Assembly: GCA_934095965.1 (NCBI GenBank)
Contig: CAKOKR010000001.1
Coordinates: 2,047 to 66,046, forward strand
Length of the DNA stretch: 64,000 nt
Direction of reading: 5' to 3'
Origin: an uncultured Bacilli bacterium
GTDB lineage: Bacteria; Bacillota_I; Bacilli_A; RF39; UBA660
In this document: piece after piece, positions 1 to 9,843 of the stretch
Layout: every line of letters begins with the position of its first letter
Numbering within the stretch: the stretch's first letter is position 1
Program-made: the position numbers and the translations under genes
Notes under the pieces: generated by a model
The model's database searches: none
What the model was told of the DNA's origin: nothing
Seen by the model: only the letters and a program-made list of their open reading frames with translations

Positions 1-288
1 GAATTGTTTGATCAGCTATTTGGTAGTAGTAACATATATGATTTATTTATAAAAGATCCTGAGGCAATTAGAAAGTTTGAATTAGCGGACATGGAAATAC
101 AAGAATCATTTAATAAGATGGAGAAATATATTAAAAATGGTACAGATTTAGAAAAAGAAGCCATTAGAGTATTAAAAGAATTTATGGAAAATGATAAAGA
201 AACAAGTATTAAAGATTCAAACAAAAATATTGAAGAATTAAAAAATAGATTAGAAAAGTTAGTGGAAAAGAATAATAAAAATGAATAA
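1..288 (+). CDS. 3' end of an upstream ORF (hypothetical, coiled-coil or charged); the window starts inside it
   Basis: The open frame runs from nt 1 with no in-frame stop. The listed start at nt 4 is TTG, so this is probably not the true start. The sequence is Lys/Glu-rich. Confidence 0.3.
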   Translation, partial: ELFDQLFGSSNIYDLFIKDPEAIRKFELADMEIQESFNKMEKYIKNGTDLEKEAIRVLKEFMENDKETSIKDSNKNIEELKNRLEKLVEKNNKNE

Positions 289-392
289 TTTTTAGGTACG
301 TAATTAGCTGCTTAAAGTACCTAAAAACATATAAAATTGAATAAACACAAATAAACTGATATATACATAAGCCCTTTTAAATAAAGGGTTTT

Positions 393-968
393 ATGTATTT
401 TATAAATGTTGATAATACGGAACTCGATAATCTCCTGAAGAGAGCAGACCCAATTGAATATCACATCAAAGCATTTGAAAAACTCTTATCACTATTAAAT
501 AGCTGTGTTAATAAAATAATAATATCATTCCTTGATGAATATAAAAATGTTTTAAAAAATAAAAATATTTTACAATATAAAACATTAACAGAAAAAGACT
601 ATGAACAAATTGGAATTAACTTTAGTGCTATTGCTAAAAAATATAATATGACAGTTCAAACATGTTTTGAGGATAGAAACTTAACAGAATATGGCTTCAT
701 AAAAGAAGATTGCCTATCTCACAAACTTGCTTACTACTTAACGGGTAAAAAATATAAAAGTTGGAAGTCTCGTAAAGGAAGAAAATACAATTGTGTAGAA
801 ATGGTAGACATCGGTGCATACGACACTTGTAAACATTTCTGTAAATATTGTTATGCAAACTATGATGAAAACAAAGTAAACAATAATACATTAAATCACA
901 ACTCCAATTCATCATTAATAACAGGTACAATTACAGATAAATATACAATAAAGATAAGAAAAATTTGA
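393..968 (+). pseudogene. Truncated second copy of a DUF1848 family gene (C-terminal ~185 aa only)
   Basis: Residues IEYHIKAFEKLLSLL...CKHFCKYCYANYDE...KIRKI are ~90% identical to the C-terminal half of the 4102..4989 product. The first ~20 codons are unrelated. There is no N-terminal GRTDIIAFY region. Confidence 0.55.
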
Positions 969-1283
969 CAAAATTCAAGTTCAAATTGTTAGTGAAAATA
1001 AAAAAAATATACGTAAAAAAGGAGTTGATAATATGAAAGAAAAAGAAAAAAAGGATTTGATGATATAGACATAGAAAAACAATGGAATGATATGATTAAA
1101 GAAGTGCTAGAATTACTTGATCCAGCCATGGATGATATGCCTTCCGTTGCTTTAAATTGACAAACACCAAATGAATATTGAAAACAACAATAATAAAAGC
1201 ATAATTAATAAATCTAAAAAGATATATAAACTAGATTAAAGTCTCGGTACACCTGAGATTTTTTTCTACAAAAAATATCATCC

Positions 1284-1295
1284 CTATGTTATAAT
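1284..1295 (+). promoter_or_regulatory. Extended -10 promoter element (TGtTATAAT) upstream of the helicase gene
   Basis: tatgTTATAATat lies 20 nt upstream of the RBS and ATG at 1317. A hairpin plus T7 terminator lies just upstream at ~1240-1270. Confidence 0.4.
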
Positions 1296-1316
1296 ATACT
1301 AAAGTAGGTGTAACAT

Positions 1317-3581
1317 ATGAAAGAAGAATTTATAAAAAAGTTAAATAATAAAGAATATATTTCTAAGTATTTATATCTCAAAACCAATGAAGAAGATTCT
1401 AGTATATTACCATATAATTTTGATATAGATAAATATAATGAAGAAGTAATAAATAATGATTTAATCAAGTATCATGATTATTTTGATAACATGTATAAAG
1501 ACATTGACTCAAATATAAAACTTGATATAGATCAACAAAAAGCAATACTTACCGATGAAGAATATTCATTAATTATCGCCGGTGCAGGAACAGGCAAAAC
1601 CACAACCATGGCATCAAAAATAAAATATCTTGTTGACATAAAAAAAGTAAATCCCAGTGAAATACTAGCTATAAGTTTTACCAAAAAAGCTACCGAAGAA
1701 CTAGAAAAAAGAATAGTAATTGATTTTAACATACCCGCTAAAGTAACAACATTTCATTCTCTAGGTTTCATGTATATCAGAGAAATATTTAAAAATCACA
1801 AATGTTTTGTAGTTGACAATAACACCCGCAACAACATATTTTTAAAATACTTTAAAGAAGAAATATTTCCAAATAAAGAAACAGTTAAAGAGCTACTTTC
1901 GTTATTTAATTCAACTACTGTTAAAAAAATATGGCTATTCGGTGATTACTTTCAAAAAAACTATAATAAATATAATACATTTGATGAATACTTCATAAAT
2001 TACAAAAAAGATAAATTAAAAGAAATACCAGATTTAACAAAATGGTTACAAGAAAGAATAGATAAATCTATAAATAGTGAGGTAATATATACAATTAACA
2101 ATGAATTAGTTAAATCAAAAGGTGAAGCTATAATTGCAAATTTTTTGTTTAAAAATAATATTGATTATGTATATGAAAAAGTCTATGAAAAATTAATGCC
2201 TGATAATAAAACTTATAAACCTGATTTTACCCTTAATCTTGGCGGAGAACCAGTATATATTGAATACTTTGGCTTATCAACATACAAAAGTGATGAACTA
2301 AATAGGTATGAAAAAATAAAAAAACTAAAAGAAGAATACCACTATAAACATCATAATAAATTCATTAAAATAGACTATCAAAAAAATGAAGATTTAGAAA
2401 AAACACTAGCAAGTGAACTAACAAAAATGGGATTTACTTTAAAACCTAAAACAGATATAGAAATATACAACCAAATACTTGATAACAACGAAACATCCCA
2501 AATGTATCCATATCGTGATTTATTATATTCAGTTATTGATCAAATTAAATCATCAAATAAAAGAAAAAAATATATTGAAGAAGTGGATAACTATATCAAA
2601 AAAACAGTATCAATCGAAGAAAAAGAAATGTGTAAAAAACAATTTAAGTATATAAATGAATTTTATATCTATTATCAAAAAGAGTTATATGGAAGTGAAA
2701 CTTATGGATTTGATTTTGCTGACATGATATATTATGCTAACCTATATATAAATAATGTTGATAATAACACAGATTTAAATTTCAAATATATAATTATTGA
2801 TGAATATCAAGATATATCTGAAGATCGTTACATCTTAACAAAAAATGTTGCTAATAAAAATCACGCTAAAGTAGTTGCAGTAGGTGATGATTGGCAATCA
2901 ATATTTTCATTCACAGGTTCAAAGATTGAATACATATATAACTTTTTATCATATTTTCCAACTGCCAAAATATTAAAGATTGCAAAAGCATATCGAAATA
3001 GTAAAGAATTAATCAAGTATTCAAGTGACTTTGTCATGAAAAATGATGAACAAATTAAAAAGGTTTTAATATCTGATAAAGAAAATCCTAATCCAATAAA
3101 GTTTGTAATGTTTGATGATGGCGAAGAAGTATCAAAATTAAAAGAATTAATATTAGCAATTAACCAAAGAAATAAAAATAGTCACATTTTAATACTAGGC
3201 AGAACTAATAGAATAATTGATTCTTTATTTGATGATGCAACATTCATTGATGAGGTTGAAACAAAAATAAAATTCGCAGGTTACAACGATATTGACATTG
3301 ATGGTATGACTATTCATAAATCAAAAGGATTAACTAGTGATGAAGTAATTATAATTGGTCTAGATAATAATTTTCCTAAATCAAACTACGGAGACTTTTG
3401 GTTAAAAGAAATATTTAAAAATAAATGGTATCAAGAAAAAATAGCATTTGCTGAAGAACGTCGTTTATTTTATGTTGCACTAACCAGAACTAAAAACAAT
3501 GTCTATCTCTTAGTTAATAAAAATATATCTAAACGTAGTCCATTTATTAATGAAATTTACAACATTATATTGACAAAATGA
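1317..3581 (+). CDS. UvrD/PcrA-family superfamily-1 DNA helicase with an inserted PD-(D/E)xK-like nuclease module (helicase-IV-like architecture)
   Basis: Walker A IIAGAGTGKTTT. Walker B/DExx IIIDEYQD. C-terminal motif VI VALTRTKNNVYLL. An internal segment GEAIIANFLFKNNIDYVYE...KPDFTL...YIEYFG resembles restriction-endonuclease-fold modules. Confidence 0.8.
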   Translation: MKEEFIKKLNNKEYISKYLYLKTNEEDSSILPYNFDIDKYNEEVINNDLIKYHDYFDNMYKDIDSNIKLDIDQQKAILTDEEYSLIIAGAGTGKTTTMASKIKYLVDIKKVNPSEILAISFTKKATEELEKRIVIDFNIPAKVTTFHSLGFMYIREIFKNHKCFVVDNNTRNNIFLKYFKEEIFPNKETVKELLSLFNSTTVKKIWLFGDYFQKNYNKYNTFDEYFINYKKDKLKEIPDLTKWLQERIDKSINSEVIYTINNELVKSKGEAIIANFLFKNNIDYVYEKVYEKLMPDNKTYKPDFTLNLGGEPVYIEYFGLSTYKSDELNRYEKIKKLKEEYHYKHHNKFIKIDYQKNEDLEKTLASELTKMGFTLKPKTDIEIYNQILDNNETSQMYPYRDLLYSVIDQIKSSNKRKKYIEEVDNYIKKTVSIEEKEMCKKQFKYINEFYIYYQKELYGSETYGFDFADMIYYANLYINNVDNNTDLNFKYIIIDEYQDISEDRYILTKNVANKNHAKVVAVGDDWQSIFSFTGSKIEYIYNFLSYFPTAKILKIAKAYRNSKELIKYSSDFVMKNDEQIKKVLISDKENPNPIKFVMFDDGEEVSKLKELILAINQRNKNSHILILGRTNRIIDSLFDDATFIDEVETKIKFAGYNDIDIDGMTIHKSKGLTSDEVIIIGLDNNFPKSNYGDFWLKEIFKNKWYQEKIAFAEERRLFYVALTRTKNNVYLLVNKNISKRSPFINEIYNIILTK

Positions 3582-3619
3582 TAACATGTGTGTATTATAT
3601 TATCTAAAGAAGGAATAAT

Positions 3620-4102
3620 ATGAATATATTTGTAACATCAGACACACATTTTAATCATAAAAACATAATTAAATATTGCCATAGACCATATAAAGATGTC
3701 GAAGAAATGAACGAAGCAATAATTAGTAATTGGAATAACTCTGTAACAAATGATGACATTATTTATCATCTCGGAGACTTTGGCTTTGGAACTAAAGAAG
3801 AGTTAAAACAAATTTTTAATAGATTAAATGGTCAAAAATATTTAATAATGGGTAATCATGATAAAAAAGTAGGTAGAAATTATTATCTTGAACTAGGTTT
3901 TATTGATGTATATCGCAAGAAATGCCTACTTGATAATTATATTCTAACCCATGAACCAATAGAAGTAGAAAGTGATAAAATAAATCTATATGGTCACATT
4001 CATAATTCTGATATCGATCCTATCTTTGATGATCCAAATCACAAATGTATCTGCCTTGAACAAACTGATTATAAACCACTTTTACTAATGAGGAAAAAAT
4101 AA
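3620..4102 (+). CDS. Small calcineurin-like metallophosphoesterase
   Basis: Motifs SDTHFNH, LGDFGFG and MGNHD match the MPP superfamily signature (D-x-H, GD, GNH[DE]). Confidence 0.75.
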   Translation: MNIFVTSDTHFNHKNIIKYCHRPYKDVEEMNEAIISNWNNSVTNDDIIYHLGDFGFGTKEELKQIFNRLNGQKYLIMGNHDKKVGRNYYLELGFIDVYRKKCLLDNYILTHEPIEVESDKINLYGHIHNSDIDPIFDDPNHKCICLEQTDYKPLLLMRKK

Positions 4103-4989
4103 TGGTTTTATTTGTAAGTGGAAGAACAGATATCATAGCATTTTACACAAAATGGTTTTTAAATAGATTAGATGAAGGCTTCGTTGATGTAAGAAACCCA
4201 TTTAATCCTAATCTAGTAAGTAGAATCAATTTTTCTGATGTTGATTTAATTTTATTCTGCACTAAAAATCCAATTCCAATAGTAAACCACTTAGATAAAA
4301 TACCAAAACCATTTCTATTTCATGTAACAATAACTCCATACAAAAATGATATTGAACCATATGTCCCTTCAAAAACGAAAGTGATTGAAGCTGTCAAAGA
4401 AATATCAAAACAAATTGGTAAAGAAAACATAGTAATAAGGTATGACCCAATTTTCATAAGTGACAAATACACTATTGAATATCACATCAAGGCATTTGAA
4501 AAACTCTTATCACTATTAAATGGTTACGTTAATAAAATAATAATATCTTTTCTTGATGAATATAAAAATGTTTGCAAAAATAAAAATATTTTACGATATA
4601 AAACATTAACAGAAAAAGACTATGAACAAATTGGAACTAACTTTAGTGCCATAGCTAAAAAATATAACACGACAGTTCAAACCTGTTTTGAAGATAGAAA
4701 CTTAACAGAATATGGTTTCATAAAAGGAGAATGCTTATCACATGAACTTGCTTACTACTTAACAGGTAAAAAATATAAAAGTTGGAAATCACGTAAAGGT
4801 GATAAATGCAATTGTGTTGAAATGGTAGATATCGGAGCATACAACACCTGTAAACATTTCTGTAAATATTGTTATGCAAACTATGATGAAAAAAAGGTAA
4901 ATGAAAATTCATTAAAACATAACCCCAATTCATCACTAATAACAGGTACAATTACAGATAAAGATACAATAAAGATAAGAAAAATTTGA
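4102..4989 (+). CDS. DUF1848 family protein with a C-terminal Cys cluster
   Basis: The N-terminus GRTDIIAFYTKWFLNRL and the C-terminal CNCVEMVDIGAYNTCKHFCKYC Cys cluster are typical of DUF1848. Its ATG overlaps the upstream stop (ATGA). Confidence 0.7.
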   Translation: MVLFVSGRTDIIAFYTKWFLNRLDEGFVDVRNPFNPNLVSRINFSDVDLILFCTKNPIPIVNHLDKIPKPFLFHVTITPYKNDIEPYVPSKTKVIEAVKEISKQIGKENIVIRYDPIFISDKYTIEYHIKAFEKLLSLLNGYVNKIIISFLDEYKNVCKNKNILRYKTLTEKDYEQIGTNFSAIAKKYNTTVQTCFEDRNLTEYGFIKGECLSHELAYYLTGKKYKSWKSRKGDKCNCVEMVDIGAYNTCKHFCKYCYANYDEKKVNENSLKHNPNSSLITGTITDKDTIKIRKI

Positions 4990-5042
4990 CAAAATGATAA
5001 TAAAGTGATAGAATATACCCCAATACAAAGGGGTGTTTTTAA

Positions 5043-6725
5043 ATGAATAATCAAAAAATAGAAACAATAAAAAGTCTCTATTCTGGTGCAAAAGCATACA
5101 CTATGTTTATAGTAGAAGAACGTCAACATGATAATGCTAAGGTTGACTATATTTTAGAAGATAAATATTATAATTGTGCAAGGCTTGGATTTATTACCAA
5201 CATAATGCTTGCAATAAAAGAAGAATTAGTAGAAAAAGTATCATATCATAATTTTGAATCACTAGTTTTTAATAATGAACTAGAAAAATCAGTAAAATGT
5301 ATTGCAAGTAAAGTAAGTAATGGTTATAAAATAGATAACTATGTATTTGATACAATACCAAATTTAGTGGCCACTCTAAGAGATAAACTTGCACATGGAA
5401 ACTATATAATATGTAGTAATTACAAAGAAATAACAATAATTCTAGATGATAAAGGTACCACAATTAATATTGAAATAGACAAATTAGCAAAATTTGTTAC
5501 AAATGCAATGATAAGTTTTATAAAAAAACAAAATCCAAAAGAATTTGTTCGTAAAAACATTATGTTTAGCAAAATAAAAAATGGTGATAAGCCATTGTTA
5601 TCAAAATCAGAAGTAAGGTTTGTAAGTAAAAATGCAAAAAGAGTAACAATCAAGTTCAAAAGAAAAGATGGTAAAGATTTAACAGAAAAAGAAACAGAAA
5701 GATTAGAAGAATATTGTGACATTTTAAAAAAAGATAGTAGCAATGAAACTATTGAAAAAATAAAAAAAATAACAATGTATACATACGATTTTACATACGA
5801 AAGAAAACCAATTGCTAACATAAATTATGATTTAATAGCAGATGTATTAATGTCAAGTTACAAAAATGTTAAACTTGAACGCCAATTAATATGTATAGCA
5901 TTTTTAATTGAAAAAATGATTGATGATACGAATACTTTACAAGAAATAATGGCATCAATCAACAATCTAATTTTGCTTAAAGCAATTTATGAAAATAAAA
6001 GTGTTGACATGAATTATGTCTCAACAAAATTAGATGGTAAAGAAATATCCAACGGTATTATGGAATTAGCAAATGCAGCAATAACATTATTCCAAACATT
6101 ATTTTCATATGCAAATGATGATGTATTCAAAAATGATTTTGAGTATCAACAAACACAAAGTAATGGACTAGACTACGGGAAATTAGATTTATCAAATATA
6201 AAAGTATTAGTATATCCAACAGATAAAAGTCCAATTGATGTATATCTAGAGCAAAAGAAAAAAGCTGATAGAGAATATGCAAATATTCAAAAAAACATTG
6301 CTAAAGTGATTGAAAACAAAAATAATGCTATTAAAAATAACAATCAAAATGCAATTTCAAATATAAATCAAGTATTAAATACTTTAAAACAAACTGAACA
6401 AATAAAATTGCAAGATAAAATAAAATGTGATACAGAATATAATAACGTATGCACTTATGAACAAACAAATAAAAAACATCTAATTAATAGATCAATAATT
6501 AATGGAATAAGAAATTGTATTGCACACGGAAACTATCGAATCGTTCATGGAAAAACTGTAAGTGATGCAACATTAGTATTTGAAGATATACATAACAAAA
6601 AGTTAACATTCAAAGCAGTAGTAAATCCTATTGATTTTATAAATATGATTTATGAAAATGAATGGGTTGTAACTGAATTTTTAAATAATTTAACAACTCA
6701 AAACACATTAACTAGACAAAAATAG
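5043..6725 (+). CDS. Hypothetical protein with two HEPN-like Rx4H motifs (putative RNase of an Abi or defence type)
   Basis: RDKLAHGNY lies at about aa 113-121 and RNCIAHGNY at about aa 490-498. Both are R-x4-H followed by GNY. The RBS is AAAGGGGTG. Confidence 0.5.
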   Translation: MNNQKIETIKSLYSGAKAYTMFIVEERQHDNAKVDYILEDKYYNCARLGFITNIMLAIKEELVEKVSYHNFESLVFNNELEKSVKCIASKVSNGYKIDNYVFDTIPNLVATLRDKLAHGNYIICSNYKEITIILDDKGTTINIEIDKLAKFVTNAMISFIKKQNPKEFVRKNIMFSKIKNGDKPLLSKSEVRFVSKNAKRVTIKFKRKDGKDLTEKETERLEEYCDILKKDSSNETIEKIKKITMYTYDFTYERKPIANINYDLIADVLMSSYKNVKLERQLICIAFLIEKMIDDTNTLQEIMASINNLILLKAIYENKSVDMNYVSTKLDGKEISNGIMELANAAITLFQTLFSYANDDVFKNDFEYQQTQSNGLDYGKLDLSNIKVLVYPTDKSPIDVYLEQKKKADREYANIQKNIAKVIENKNNAIKNNNQNAISNINQVLNTLKQTEQIKLQDKIKCDTEYNNVCTYEQTNKKHLINRSIINGIRNCIAHGNYRIVHGKTVSDATLVFEDIHNKKLTFKAVVNPIDFINMIYENEWVVTEFLNNLTTQNTLTRQK

Positions 6726-6814
6726 TAACTATAGTTACCCGCGTATATACCTAGAAAAATAAGAAAATGTAATAGGTTAAAATAACTATTGCATTTTTTA
6801 TTTAAAAAAATAAC

Positions 6815-6843
6815 TTGTATATCAAACATACGTGTGCTATAAT
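6815..6843 (+). promoter_or_regulatory. Sigma-A-like promoter (TTGTAT - 17 nt - TATAAT, with TGc extended)
   Basis: Consensus spacing, upstream of the 6954 gene. Confidence 0.5.
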
Positions 6844-6953
6844 AGATGTATCAATTCAAAAAAGTTTTGGAATTGATAACTGTATGTTGATTAAGTATTC
6901 ATATTGAAAAAGGTACAAAACATTTAAAAATTTTGTTATCTTTTGGAGGTAAT

Positions 6954-7322
6954 ATGAAAACAGAAATAACAAAATACTTACATCAACATAAATCTACGAA
7001 TTTCTCTAGTCTTCTGTTTTTATATATTGATAAAAGTGGGCTAAAGGATTCAATGATTTACAAAAAAGCTGGCATCGATAGAAAATTATTTTCAAAAATT
7101 AGATGCAACGATTATATTCTAAACAAAAAAACTATTATAAGGTTATGCTTTGTTTTAAAATTATCACTAGATGAAGCAAATAAACTTTTAAATAGTGCAG
7201 GATATGCATTAAGTAAAAGTCAAGACTTTGATTTAATCATTCAATATTGTTTAGAAAAAAAAATATATGACTTGTATATCGTAAATGAAATGCTAGAAAC
7301 TTTTTTAAAAACTGTTCTTTAA
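6954..7322 (+). CDS. Hypothetical small protein (possible HTH-like)
   Basis: GGAGG RBS 6 nt upstream of the ATG at 6954. The long ORF listed from 6933 is less likely to be real. Confidence 0.4.
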   Translation: MKTEITKYLHQHKSTNFSSLLFLYIDKSGLKDSMIYKKAGIDRKLFSKIRCNDYILNKKTIIRLCFVLKLSLDEANKLLNSAGYALSKSQDFDLIIQYCLEKKIYDLYIVNEMLETFLKTVL

Positions 7323-7335
7323 CAGTATTTTTTTT
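7308..7335 (+). terminator. Rho-independent terminator
   Basis: aaACTGTTctttAACAGTattttttttt. Confidence 0.5.
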
Positions 7336-7449
7336 TGCAATTTTTCCCTAAGATATGCCAAAAACATGTCGCCAAAATTTGTCGCTTTTAAAGCGACCAC
7401 ATTACCCATCTTTTCTAGTATAATTGATTTATCGAATGGAGGAAATAAT

Positions 7450-7959
7450 ATGAAAACAAATATGCAAATGTTAAGAAATTTAATTAGAGAGGAGGAAGAA
7501 AATCTAGATTTAATAAGATTTAGTAGTCAAGATTATTTATTTAATAAAGTAAATGAAGAATTAAATGGTAAAGTCACAATTCTTGTCGATAACACAGAAA
7601 AAATGTTAGAAAAACTAAAGGAGGTAGAAGATTTAACAAATAAAATTAATTACCTTAAAAGAACTTTGTTCGAAAAAGAAAATGAACTAAGACTAGAAGA
7701 TGGAAGAACAGTGAAGGAAGCATCAGTAGAAAATAAATACAACTTAAAGTTAAAGTATTATTATGAAGCTCTTTTACGTAAAGAAAATAAAAAAATAAGA
7801 ATGACAGATTCTAAAAGTGCATACTTCTTAGAATATAAATTAAACGTTGATAGAAATGAAATTAAAGAAAAACTAAAGAAAATCAGTGAAGAAATAAGAA
7901 ATACAACTAATAAAATAATTAGATTAAATGGCGAATTTTTTGAAATAGATTTACCATAA
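7450..7959 (+). CDS. Hypothetical coiled-coil protein
   Basis: aatGGAGGaaataatATG. The upstream ORF extension lacks an RBS. Confidence 0.4.
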   Translation: MKTNMQMLRNLIREEEENLDLIRFSSQDYLFNKVNEELNGKVTILVDNTEKMLEKLKEVEDLTNKINYLKRTLFEKENELRLEDGRTVKEASVENKYNLKLKYYYEALLRKENKKIRMTDSKSAYFLEYKLNVDRNEIKEKLKKISEEIRNTTNKIIRLNGEFFEIDLP

Positions 7960-9621: not shown

Positions 9622-9684
9622 TAATAATTTCTAGTGATTTTTATTTCTTTTAGTAGTATAATAAAAAGTAGAAATGAGGTAATT

Positions 9685-9843
9685 ATGGAAGAAAAAAATA
9701 AATTAGAAACTTGCAGTTGTGAAGAATGCAGTTGTGAAGAATGCAATTGCGAAAACTGTGATTGCGAAGAATGCGATTGCGAAGACTGTAAATGTCAAAG
9801 TTGTGATTGCGAAGAATGCAACTGTGAAGATTGCGATTGTTAA
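9685..9843 (+). CDS. Cys-rich acidic repeat peptide (52 aa, 18 Cys; eight 5-aa C-x-C-E-x repeats plus a terminal CDC)
   Basis: RBS aatGAGGTaattATG. The sequence is MEEKNKLETCSCEECSCEECNCENCDCEECDCEDCKCQSCDCEECNCEDCDC. Its own hairpin plus T-run terminator follows at 9851-9880. Confidence 0.5.
   Translation: MEEKNKLETCSCEECSCEECNCENCDCEECDCEDCKCQSCDCEECNCEDCDC

Follow-up and report, generated by a model that had tools for sequence, protein, structure and literature searches.

The region between positions 969 and 6725 of the window is probably the mosaic right-hand edge of a strain-variable defence island, at which separate units abut, and not one system. The window is a 64,000-nucleotide stretch of a gut Bacilli chromosome with a G+C content of about 25%, and the closest named genome is Clostridium sp. 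CAG:609. An initial annotation of the sequence had taken four co-oriented genes of this region for a single antiphage cassette. Their open reading frames (ORFs), with lengths in amino acids (aa), are as follows.

1317-3581, + strand: superfamily 1 (SF1) helicase, UvrD/helicase IV-like, 754 aa, with relatives in Pfam, NCBIfam and PDB
3620-4102, + strand: calcineurin-like metallophosphoesterase (MPP) of a phage-type family, 160 aa (Pfam, phrog_547, PDB 1xm7)
4102-4989, + strand: DUF1848 protein, 295 aa, with a radical-SAM-type fold and a C-terminal CxxxCxxC
5043-6725, + strand: HEPN-like protein, 560 aa, with two Rx4H motifs, a candidate stand-alone RNase effector

The spacing between these ORFs is 38 nt, then an overlap of 1 nt (TAATG), then 53 nt, and the tight packing that had been reported is borne out by the coordinates. 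Pfam domains were sought in the eight ORFs between 4 and 7959, and PADLOC models in the seven proteins encoded from 393 to 7959.

Three units can be proposed. The first would be the helicase, with a nuclease-like insertion and a promoter-like site of its own. The second would be the phage-type MPP, coupled to DUF1848. The third would be the fast-evolving 560-aa HEPN-like protein, which would again have its own promoter-like site and would be the sole good effector candidate.

The defence island and its units

The first line of evidence comes from sister strains. They share a common right flank of small ORFs and of DUF362, CinA and radical-SAM genes, at about 94% DNA identity. The cargo on the left is as follows.

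Window and L050 (the window's own genome with 2452 nt extra upstream): a type I restriction-modification (RM) methylase-specificity gene and a 302-aa protein
L001 and L008: helicase, MPP, DUF1848 N-fragment, AAA_18, AbiEi, AbiEii and a 237-aa protein
L055: Cas9 (HNH), Cas1, Cas2 and Csn2
L056: PDC-M33 A, B and C, then an MPP fragment

These strains provide a clear case, among gut Bacilli with small genomes, of a defence-island hotspot where one position is occupied by any of four different known or candidate systems. The label of defence island, already given in the initial annotation, is upheld, since AbiE, type II-A CRISPR-Cas, PDC-M33 or type I RM is found at the same position. The type I RM gene, which lies upstream of the window, matches N6_Mtase (7e-62), Methylase_S and the PADLOC model MTase_I (1.8e-157). 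Together with the 302-aa ORF it is strain-specific island cargo. The helicase is absent from L055 and L056, and is therefore dispensable even within the species.

The window helicase is 98% identical to that of L001, MPP is 92.5% identical, DUF1848 93.6% and the small proteins downstream 91-98%. The HEPN-like protein (window 5043-6725, L001 10001-11683) is 64% identical, compared with 91-98% for the flanking genes. Such an outlier in divergence is expected from diversifying selection or allele replacement.

A complete PDC-M33 match was seen in L056 at 248-3745 (A 3e-154, B 6e-67, C 8e-67, with C being DUF6339). It occupies the position that the helicase has in the window.

The second line of evidence is the distribution of the four genes. 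A genome scan for the HEPN-like gene gave 42 loci, mostly from gut "Bacilli", Tenericutes-like and CAG genomes. Neighbours were searched by tblastn with the four window proteins, within 10 kb of the HEPN-like homologues. None of the other three genes was found in that range in about 36 of the 42 loci. DUF1848 was present in three of them (L008, which is Clostridium sp. CAG:609, L039 and L045), and the metagenome loci L001 and L005-L007 also show it near a HEPN-like gene. Helicase and MPP were found near HEPN-like homologues only in the CAG:609-like L001 and L008. The 42 genome loci and two from contig look-ups form 27 clusters at 50% identity. All-against-all neighbour clustering gave no universal neighbour across these clusters, and 17 of the 27 were without any tested neighbour class.

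The same picture is obtained from the other genes. Among 80 metagenome loci with DUF1848 (65-93% identity), the helicase was found in none, an MPP fragment in one and a HEPN-like gene 0.05-5 kb downstream in 28; 52 had none of them. The contexts of three helicase homologues, 61-74% identical, are unrelated and include neither MPP nor DUF1848 nor the HEPN-like gene. Homologues of MPP were found on 53 viral contigs, and within 6 kb of these no related helicase, no DUF1848 and no HEPN-like gene was present on any contig.

Co-occurrence across unrelated genomes, by which a multi-gene system can be recognised, was not seen for the four genes. The initial annotation had itself named conservation of the neighbourhood as a check, and elsewhere the set essentially never co-occurs. 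Only the CAG:609-like lineage has all four genes together, and even there they form a mosaic in which helicase and MPP can be dispensed with; on these grounds the single cassette was given up. That a four-gene system does not hold up spares the cloning of the wrong unit.

The third line of evidence is provided by expression signals inside the set. The following promoter-like sites and hairpins were found in and before it.

362-398, + strand: terminator-like hairpin after the 302-aa ORF (-15 kcal/mol, z -4.8), also found in the terminator scan
1238-1271, + strand: intrinsic-terminator-like hairpin with a U7 run, upstream of the helicase (-14.5 kcal/mol, z -5.65; 0 of 200 shuffles fold as well)
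1286-1294, + strand: extended -10-like box TGTTATAAT upstream of the helicase start, read from the sequence
3570-3598, + strand: promoter-like site ahead of the MPP gene (TTGACA, 17 nt, TATTAT; 11/12)
4986-5014, + strand: promoter-like site between DUF1848 and the HEPN-like gene (TTGACA, 17 nt, TG-TAGAAT; 11/12), the best of the stretch
5015-5036, + strand: hairpin with a U5 run directly 3' of the preceding site (-12 kcal/mol, z -3.3)

The four genes had been described as having their own promoter and terminator. The upstream half of this description stands, with the hairpin at 1238-1271 and the extended -10-like box before the helicase. The downstream half does not, as no terminator was found after 6725, where the best hairpin reaches -3 kcal/mol (z -0.6). 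The 3' arm (GGGG) of the hairpin at 5015-5036 is likely the ribosome-binding site of the HEPN-like gene. By pairing with this site, the hairpin would limit translation of the HEPN-like protein and keep its basal expression low, and it would also stop read-through from the upstream genes.

Exactly two copies of a 15-mer, TTGACAAAATGATAA, are present in the 64-kb window (0.08 expected), at 3570-3584 and 4986-5000. Both lie at gene 3' ends, those of the helicase and DUF1848, and each contains the -35 of one of the two best plus-strand promoter-like sites.

Several observations weigh against a division into separate units. Promoter-like sites are overall no commoner than in shuffled sequence, so that the promoter signals are only suggestive and the TGTTATAAT box is weak. 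The one-base overlap of MPP and DUF1848 indicates that at least those two genes are co-expressed here. In three or more diverged lineages DUF1848 and the HEPN-like gene are direct neighbours, separated by 53-320 nt, and this may reflect a functional link. Lastly, MPP or another phosphoesterase recurs beside HEPN-like homologues in several lineages, and MPP may not be fully independent.

DUF1848 and its remnant

The DUF1848 protein matches PF08902 in Pfam at 5e-88. The Cys cluster that had been pointed out in it was confirmed as an invariant C250-x3-C254-x2-C257 motif at the C-terminus. An AlphaFold2 (AF2) model was obtained with a pLDDT of 89 and a pTM of 0.88. Both the CxxxCxxC cluster motif and a partial TIM-barrel fold, by which membership of the radical SAM enzymes is judged, are present, and the predicted structure has a fold similar to that of radical-SAM enzymes, notably spore photoproduct lyase. 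Unlike in these enzymes, the Cys motif is C-terminal (C250, C254, C257) and not N-terminal, and there is no sequence-level match to solved structures. Sequence and profile searches of PDB with DUF1848 gave nothing meaningful.

Going by the model, DUF1848 appears to be a strongly conserved radical-SAM-fold enzyme resembling spore photoproduct lyase. It is 68-76% identical across lineages where the HEPN-like protein is 30-34% identical. One source names a homologue "DNA repair photolyase", and a scan of viral contigs for DUF1848 found none. The sole literature link to defence ties DUF1848 to defence-type UG25 methylase-reverse transcriptase (RT) genes (PMC9226505). The corresponding PADLOC model, RTasDUF1848, matches the window protein at 8e-33. 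The radical-SAM fold points to DNA repair or modification rather than immunity, and DUF1848 presumably repairs or modifies DNA or nucleotides and does not belong to defence.

A second, partial copy of DUF1848 lies upstream of the helicase. Two features describe it.

453-974, + strand: DUF1848 3' remnant, codons about 124-295, 91% identical to 4474-4995, 4021 nt apart
434-445, + strand: 12-mer CCTGAAGAGAGC at the junction with the DUF1848 fragment, a single occurrence in the window (0.06 expected)

The remnant is read as an ORF, 393-968, with a new 20-aa N-terminus, and matches PF08902 positions 125-262 of 262. The resulting 522-nt repeat brackets the helicase, MPP and the 5' part of DUF1848. 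It had been regarded as a duplication flanking the cassette; one of the copies lies within the set, as the 3' part of the intact DUF1848 gene, so the four-gene set is not flanked. In L001, the 3' part of the DUF1848 gene next to the HEPN-like gene shares 98% identity with the remnant. A tandem duplication of helicase, MPP and DUF1848 is a less likely origin of the repeat, since the remnant is closer to the L001 allele (98%) than to the window copy (91%). The remnant looks like a scar of island turnover, left by recombination at a fixed point inside DUF1848.

The complementary piece is found in L001 and L008. There, a DUF1848 N-fragment ends at the same codon, about 124, right before CCTGAAGAGAGC (L001 5610-5670). 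The left flank of the window, CCTGAAGAGAGC and the right flank of L001 are contiguous in L009 and L010 (L010 9770-9990), just upstream of HEPN-like genes. If the left flank is called X, the 12-mer O, the right flank of L001 Y, and the two parts of DUF1848 N and C, the window has the junction X-O-C, L001 and L008 have N-O-Y, and L009 and L010 have X-O-Y. This pattern is attL- and attR-like. It suggests a site-specific exchange of cargo, perhaps of a 4-kb helicase-MPP cassette.

Together with the hairpin that follows it, CCTGAAGAGAGC is the terminator of a small RNA (sRNA)-like element of about 95 nt. The element, seen at 35 loci, is in most of them oriented divergently to DUF1848 and situated about 180 nt upstream of it. 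Only the 12 nt at 434-445 are left in the window, and they appear to be the remnant of an att-like or terminator sequence. Neither the element nor the window matches an Rfam family at the gathering score, except for tRNA; only a 19-bit match to the DUF2693 RNA was obtained. In L135 an integrase gene lies beside the element.

The sRNA-like element consists of a TTGACA promoter, two hairpins and a GAGAGC-GAAA-GCTCTC terminator. It was seen at L005 8829-8715 (minus strand), at L136 8821-8715 and at 33 other loci. Island cargo, and the integrase gene in L135, adjoin the 3' end of the element, where they would be expected if it served as an integration site.

Another model for the remnant is that of an integrative cassette. 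In this model, the helicase, MPP, the 5' part of DUF1848 and the upstream 3' fragment form an element of about 4 kb without an integrase. The cassette would have recombined between an att-like site (X-CCTGAAGAGAGC-Y) and a site in DUF1848, and the duplication would be an attL-type junction. The same 12-mer and the same breakpoint at X-O-C and N-O-Y, with X-O-Y contiguous in other strains, are what the model predicts. The location of the 12-mer in the terminator of the sRNA-like element, near DUF1848 in 35 loci and beside an integrase gene in one, also agrees with it. The joined form N-O-C (predicted ...AAATACCACCTGAAGAGAGCAGACCCAATTG...) would preserve the reading frame. However, this form, with its 6-codon O insertion (LKRA), was found in 0 of 120 DUF1848 proteins. 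No strain was found that has both junctions around one segment, and the cassette is without a recombinase. Moreover, plain homologous recombination between DUF1848 copies also occurs, as in L056, and accounts for part of the mosaic. An integrative cassette is for these reasons a rather unlikely explanation.

The HEPN-like protein and its neighbours

The two Rx4H motifs of the 560-aa protein, already noted in the initial annotation, are RDKLAH at residues 113-118 (R113, H118) and RNCIAH at 490-495 (R490, H495). Neither R113-x4-H118 nor R490-x4-H495 varies across 34 homologues (27-79% identity), and both conform to the Rx4-6H pattern of HEPN proteins. The N- and C-terminal motif regions are homologous to each other (hhalign 88%, E 3e-6). 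In the AF2 model (pLDDT 90, pTM 0.86), an N-terminal helical module with motif 1 is followed by a central alpha/beta part, a coiled-coil hairpin at about 396-475 and a C-terminal module with motif 2. Searches with the protein gave 183 word-index matches, and 378 clusters at 50% identity by exhaustive profile search. Nearly all of these clusters are 540-600 aa long.

Matches to described HEPN families are weak. When the C-terminal domains of 13 family members were scanned in isolation, PF18736 (pEK499_p136) was found in four of them (best 1.4e-4) and PF18737 (HEPN_MAE_28990) in five (best 1.7e-3), in both cases sub-threshold. Precomputed matches to PF18736 (PF18736.8) are on record for most homologues, and were not reproduced in full-length scans of 34 family members with local Pfam. 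The full-length window protein has no HEPN family match in Pfam. No PADLOC model, that of ApeA included, matches it. PDB sequence and profile searches gave nothing meaningful, and no solved structure matches. Membership of the HEPN superfamily rests on the motifs and the weak hidden Markov model (HMM) matches, and the protein is here called HEPN-like.

With pEK499_p136 (PF18736) and HEPN_MAE_28990 (PF18737) the protein shares an Rx4H motif of the RN-x-I-A-H-G type and a defence or RM context. Unlike these families, it has two motif modules per chain, a central alpha/beta part and a coiled-coil hairpin of about 80 residues. For HEPN genes of the pEK499_p136 type, RM and Pgl neighbourhoods have been described (Anantharaman et al. 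2013, PMC3710099), and the island context of the HEPN-like gene fits with this.

The HEPN-like protein looks like the only good defence-effector candidate among the four genes. It is presumably a stand-alone RNase of the abortive-infection (Abi) type, from an uncharacterised family. Cas13 builds a composite RNase site from two HEPN motifs of the same polypeptide, and ApeA is a stand-alone HEPN defence gene. The HEPN-like protein resembles these two in its likely mechanism only and is a member of neither. Unlike Cas13, its gene has no linked CRISPR array or guide RNA.

In the proposed mechanism, the two Rx4H motifs would join into one composite RNase site, either intramolecularly or between the subunits of a dimer. 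Until a phage cue arrives, this site would be kept inactive by the central domain and the coiled coil. Once activated, the RNase would cut cellular or phage RNA, and abortive infection would result. A fuller version of this proposal is tentative and perhaps has a chance of about one in three. It holds that the family is a new single-gene antiphage RNase with an intramolecular two-HEPN site, gated by the coiled coil and an alpha/beta sensor. It also holds that the gene is hotspot cargo, swapped by site-specific recombination at the small-RNA terminator and inside DUF1848. The tandem-HEPN family is well delimited, has a confident structure model and is testable as a single gene.

Tandem paralogue pairs of the family were observed at L012 10001-13282, L026 2536-5807, L037 1026-4323 and L040 2319-5616.

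The neighbourhood of the HEPN-like gene is best seen in a gut Bacilli clade. Here the order is PFOR, RecG, (acetyltransferase), DUF1848, a 281-aa helix-turn-helix (HTH) protein, the HEPN-like gene and an S41 peptidase, with a NERD protein further on. In L135 DUF1848 is separated from a truncated HEPN-like gene by four genes, among them one for a CitMHS transporter. In L011, L012 and L036 the HEPN-like gene lies beside RecG without any DUF1848. The two genes are taken to be close because both lie in one variable region, and not because they form a functional pair.

A functional pair would be a two-gene system of DUF1848 and the tandem-HEPN protein, for instance one in which the radical-SAM enzyme senses or modifies nucleic acid and controls the RNase. 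The direct adjacency in the CAG:609 lineage, L005-L007 and L039 agrees with such a system, as does the HEPN-like gene within 5 kb downstream in 28 of the 80 DUF1848 loci. The link to UG25 RTs (PMC9226505) and the RTasDUF1848 match can be added. Against these stand the 52 DUF1848 loci without a HEPN-like gene and the HEPN loci without DUF1848, which are about 36 of 42. The intervening genes differ between lineages, and L011, L012 and L036, in the same RecG region, indicate a shared location and not a shared function. Identities of about 70% for DUF1848 and about 30% for the HEPN-like protein also argue against a pair, as do the promoter-like site and hairpin between the genes. A two-gene system is unlikely.

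A different partner for the HEPN RNase has also to be considered. MPP might act with it, on 2',3'-cyclic phosphate ends or on a nucleotide signal, with DUF1848 merely lying between the two. Phosphoesterase genes do abut HEPN-like homologues in several lineages. A gene of the alkaline-phosphatase type (Phosphodiest), with weak PglZ similarity, overlaps the HEPN-like start in L028-L033, and lies 754 nt upstream of the HEPN-like gene in L022, L025 and L038. In L026 an MPP that is 41% identical to the window MPP follows the tandem HEPN-like paralogues. In L014 and L020 the HEPN-like gene has a 1320-aa neighbour with a weak Metallophos_2 match. PADLOC gave no match for the phosphodiesterase neighbours.

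These cases hint at a recurrent link between HEPN-like and phosphoesterase genes. However, a clear phosphoesterase neighbour is found in four of the 27 HEPN clusters, or seven when weak matches are counted, and a background rate of adjacency was not computed for these figures. The enzymes belong to different superfamilies, and the 53 phage MPP loci have no HEPN-like gene. In the window, MPP is coupled to DUF1848 and not to the HEPN-like gene. A partnership of MPP with the RNase is quite improbable.

Coordinates of four such phosphoesterase neighbours are L028 8910-9998, L022 8138-9250, L026 5828-6298 and L014 6022-9984.

Helicase, phosphoesterase and known systems

The helicase was called UvrD-like SF1 at the outset, and this is confirmed by Pfam matches to UvrD-helicase (1.8e-39), AAA_19 (5.6e-22) and UvrD_C (4.8e-18). 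Its best NCBIfam match is DNA helicase IV (6.5e-69), and the closest solved structures are UvrD and PcrA, at about 1e-29 in the PDB search. The family comprises more than 100 clusters at 58-81% identity. SF1 motifs and domain order are common to the window protein and to DNA helicase IV (HelD), UvrD and PcrA. Unlike these, the window helicase has a score of 233 bits, far under the equivalog cut-off of 543, and a conserved nuclease-like insertion.

The insertion is about 200 aa long (residues about 195-400) and sits between the two halves of the first ATPase domain. It is conserved and has nuclease-like acidic residues. An embedded PD-(D/E)xK-like module had been claimed for it. What was seen there is the invariant E270, P302-D303 and E316, with no lysine after E316, and a match of the C-terminal region of the PADLOC model PDC-S68 to residues 254-358. 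Pfam and PDB searches gave no nuclease match for residues 195-400, and the module is only putative.

MPP was likewise named correctly as a phosphoesterase. Metallophos and Metallophos_2 match above their gathering scores, with PF12850 at 34 bits (cut-off 27), PF00149 at 33.9 (cut-off 21.5) and Pfam E-values of 3.6e-08 and 5.5e-08. The metal-binding motifs DTHFNH, GDFG, GNHD and GHIH can be read in the sequence, so that both the Pfam threshold and the motifs place it among the calcineurin-like metallophosphoesterases. The match to phrog_547 is strong (1.3e-48), and that to PDB 1xm7 (aq_1665) is 2e-10. Metal-binding motifs are shared with phage metallophosphoesterases (PHROG 547) and with PdeM, to which the match is weak (2.8e-07). 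Unlike PdeM, the window MPP reaches 30 bits against a cut-off of 150 and has no Lhr helicase, ligase or exonuclease partners. The stop codon of the MPP gene and the start codon of DUF1848 share one base (TAATG), and MPP is predicted to be translationally coupled to DUF1848.

The initial annotation had also proposed, as a check, that homology searches might place all four genes in a housekeeping repair pathway. Repair-type relatives were found for three of them, namely the helicase, MPP and DUF1848; the HEPN-like protein remains the defence candidate. Judged by such relatives, the helicase would be a repair-type protein related to helicase IV, and MPP a PdeM-like or phage-type enzyme with repair-type relatives. 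Neither is assigned to defence.

A composition like that of Gabija or Hachiman had been proposed for the four genes. It was not recovered, as no GajA, HamA or HamB was found in the PADLOC scan. For Gabija, the window helicase does match the GajB-type UvrD helicase (GajB HMMs, best 7.1e-43; GajB structures weakly, 1e-7). Unlike GajB, it is far closer to UvrD and PcrA structures, and also to helicase IV, and it has the 200-aa insertion. GajA, an OLD-family ATPase/TOPRIM nuclease, was not detected by PADLOC, nor was an OLD or TOPRIM domain by Pfam, and Gabija was rejected. Hachiman was rejected because no HamA (DUF1837) or HamB (SF2) model was among the PADLOC matches and the window helicase is SF1.

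UG25 RTs are associated with a DUF1848 protein, and UG35 RTs with a UvrD-like helicase (Mestre et al. 2022, PMC9226505). The DUF1848 and UvrD-like partners of these methylase-RT systems resemble the window proteins, and the model RTasHel matches the helicase at 1.5e-40. However, an RT gene is absent in or near the region. DRT UG25/UG35 systems were rejected, since no RT domain was found in the eight ORFs between 4 and 7959 and only HMMs of accessory genes match. HepT/MntA was rejected as well. The neighbouring ORFs have no MNT nucleotidyltransferase domain, and no small neighbour is conserved across the 27 HEPN clusters.

That helicase-nuclease, MPP, DUF1848 and tandem-HEPN protein make up one new lineage-specific four-gene antiphage system is very improbable: for all the tight co-oriented packing, the real defence island and the GajB, RTasHel and RTasDUF1848 models that match two of the proteins, the set is confined to one species-level lineage, is split by an AbiE insertion in L001 and L008, lacks the helicase in L055 and L056, has expression signals inside it, and consists of genes that are each widely and separately distributed, with PADLOC matches that reflect generic UvrD and DUF1848 similarity in the absence of the defining partner genes. 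The observation made in the initial annotation was partly confirmed and is largely right. Its interpretation is supported in part, for the defence island and the HEPN-like protein, but not for the single system.

At the left end of the window lies one further piece of the strain-specific cargo.

1-288, + strand: 3' end of the 302-aa ORF; the full gene is at L050 1832-2740, just downstream of the type I RM methylase/specificity gene

No HMM matched the 302-aa protein and PADLOC gave nothing. It contains an RHQVNH (Rx4H) motif, upstream of the window, and may be another HEPN-like protein.

To the right of the region, in the vicinity of the DUF362 and radical-SAM genes, a small ORF at 9634-9843 immediately precedes an XRE-type HTH gene. 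It encodes a Cys/Glu-rich repeat peptide with CxCEEC units (15-nt period, 8.5 copies).

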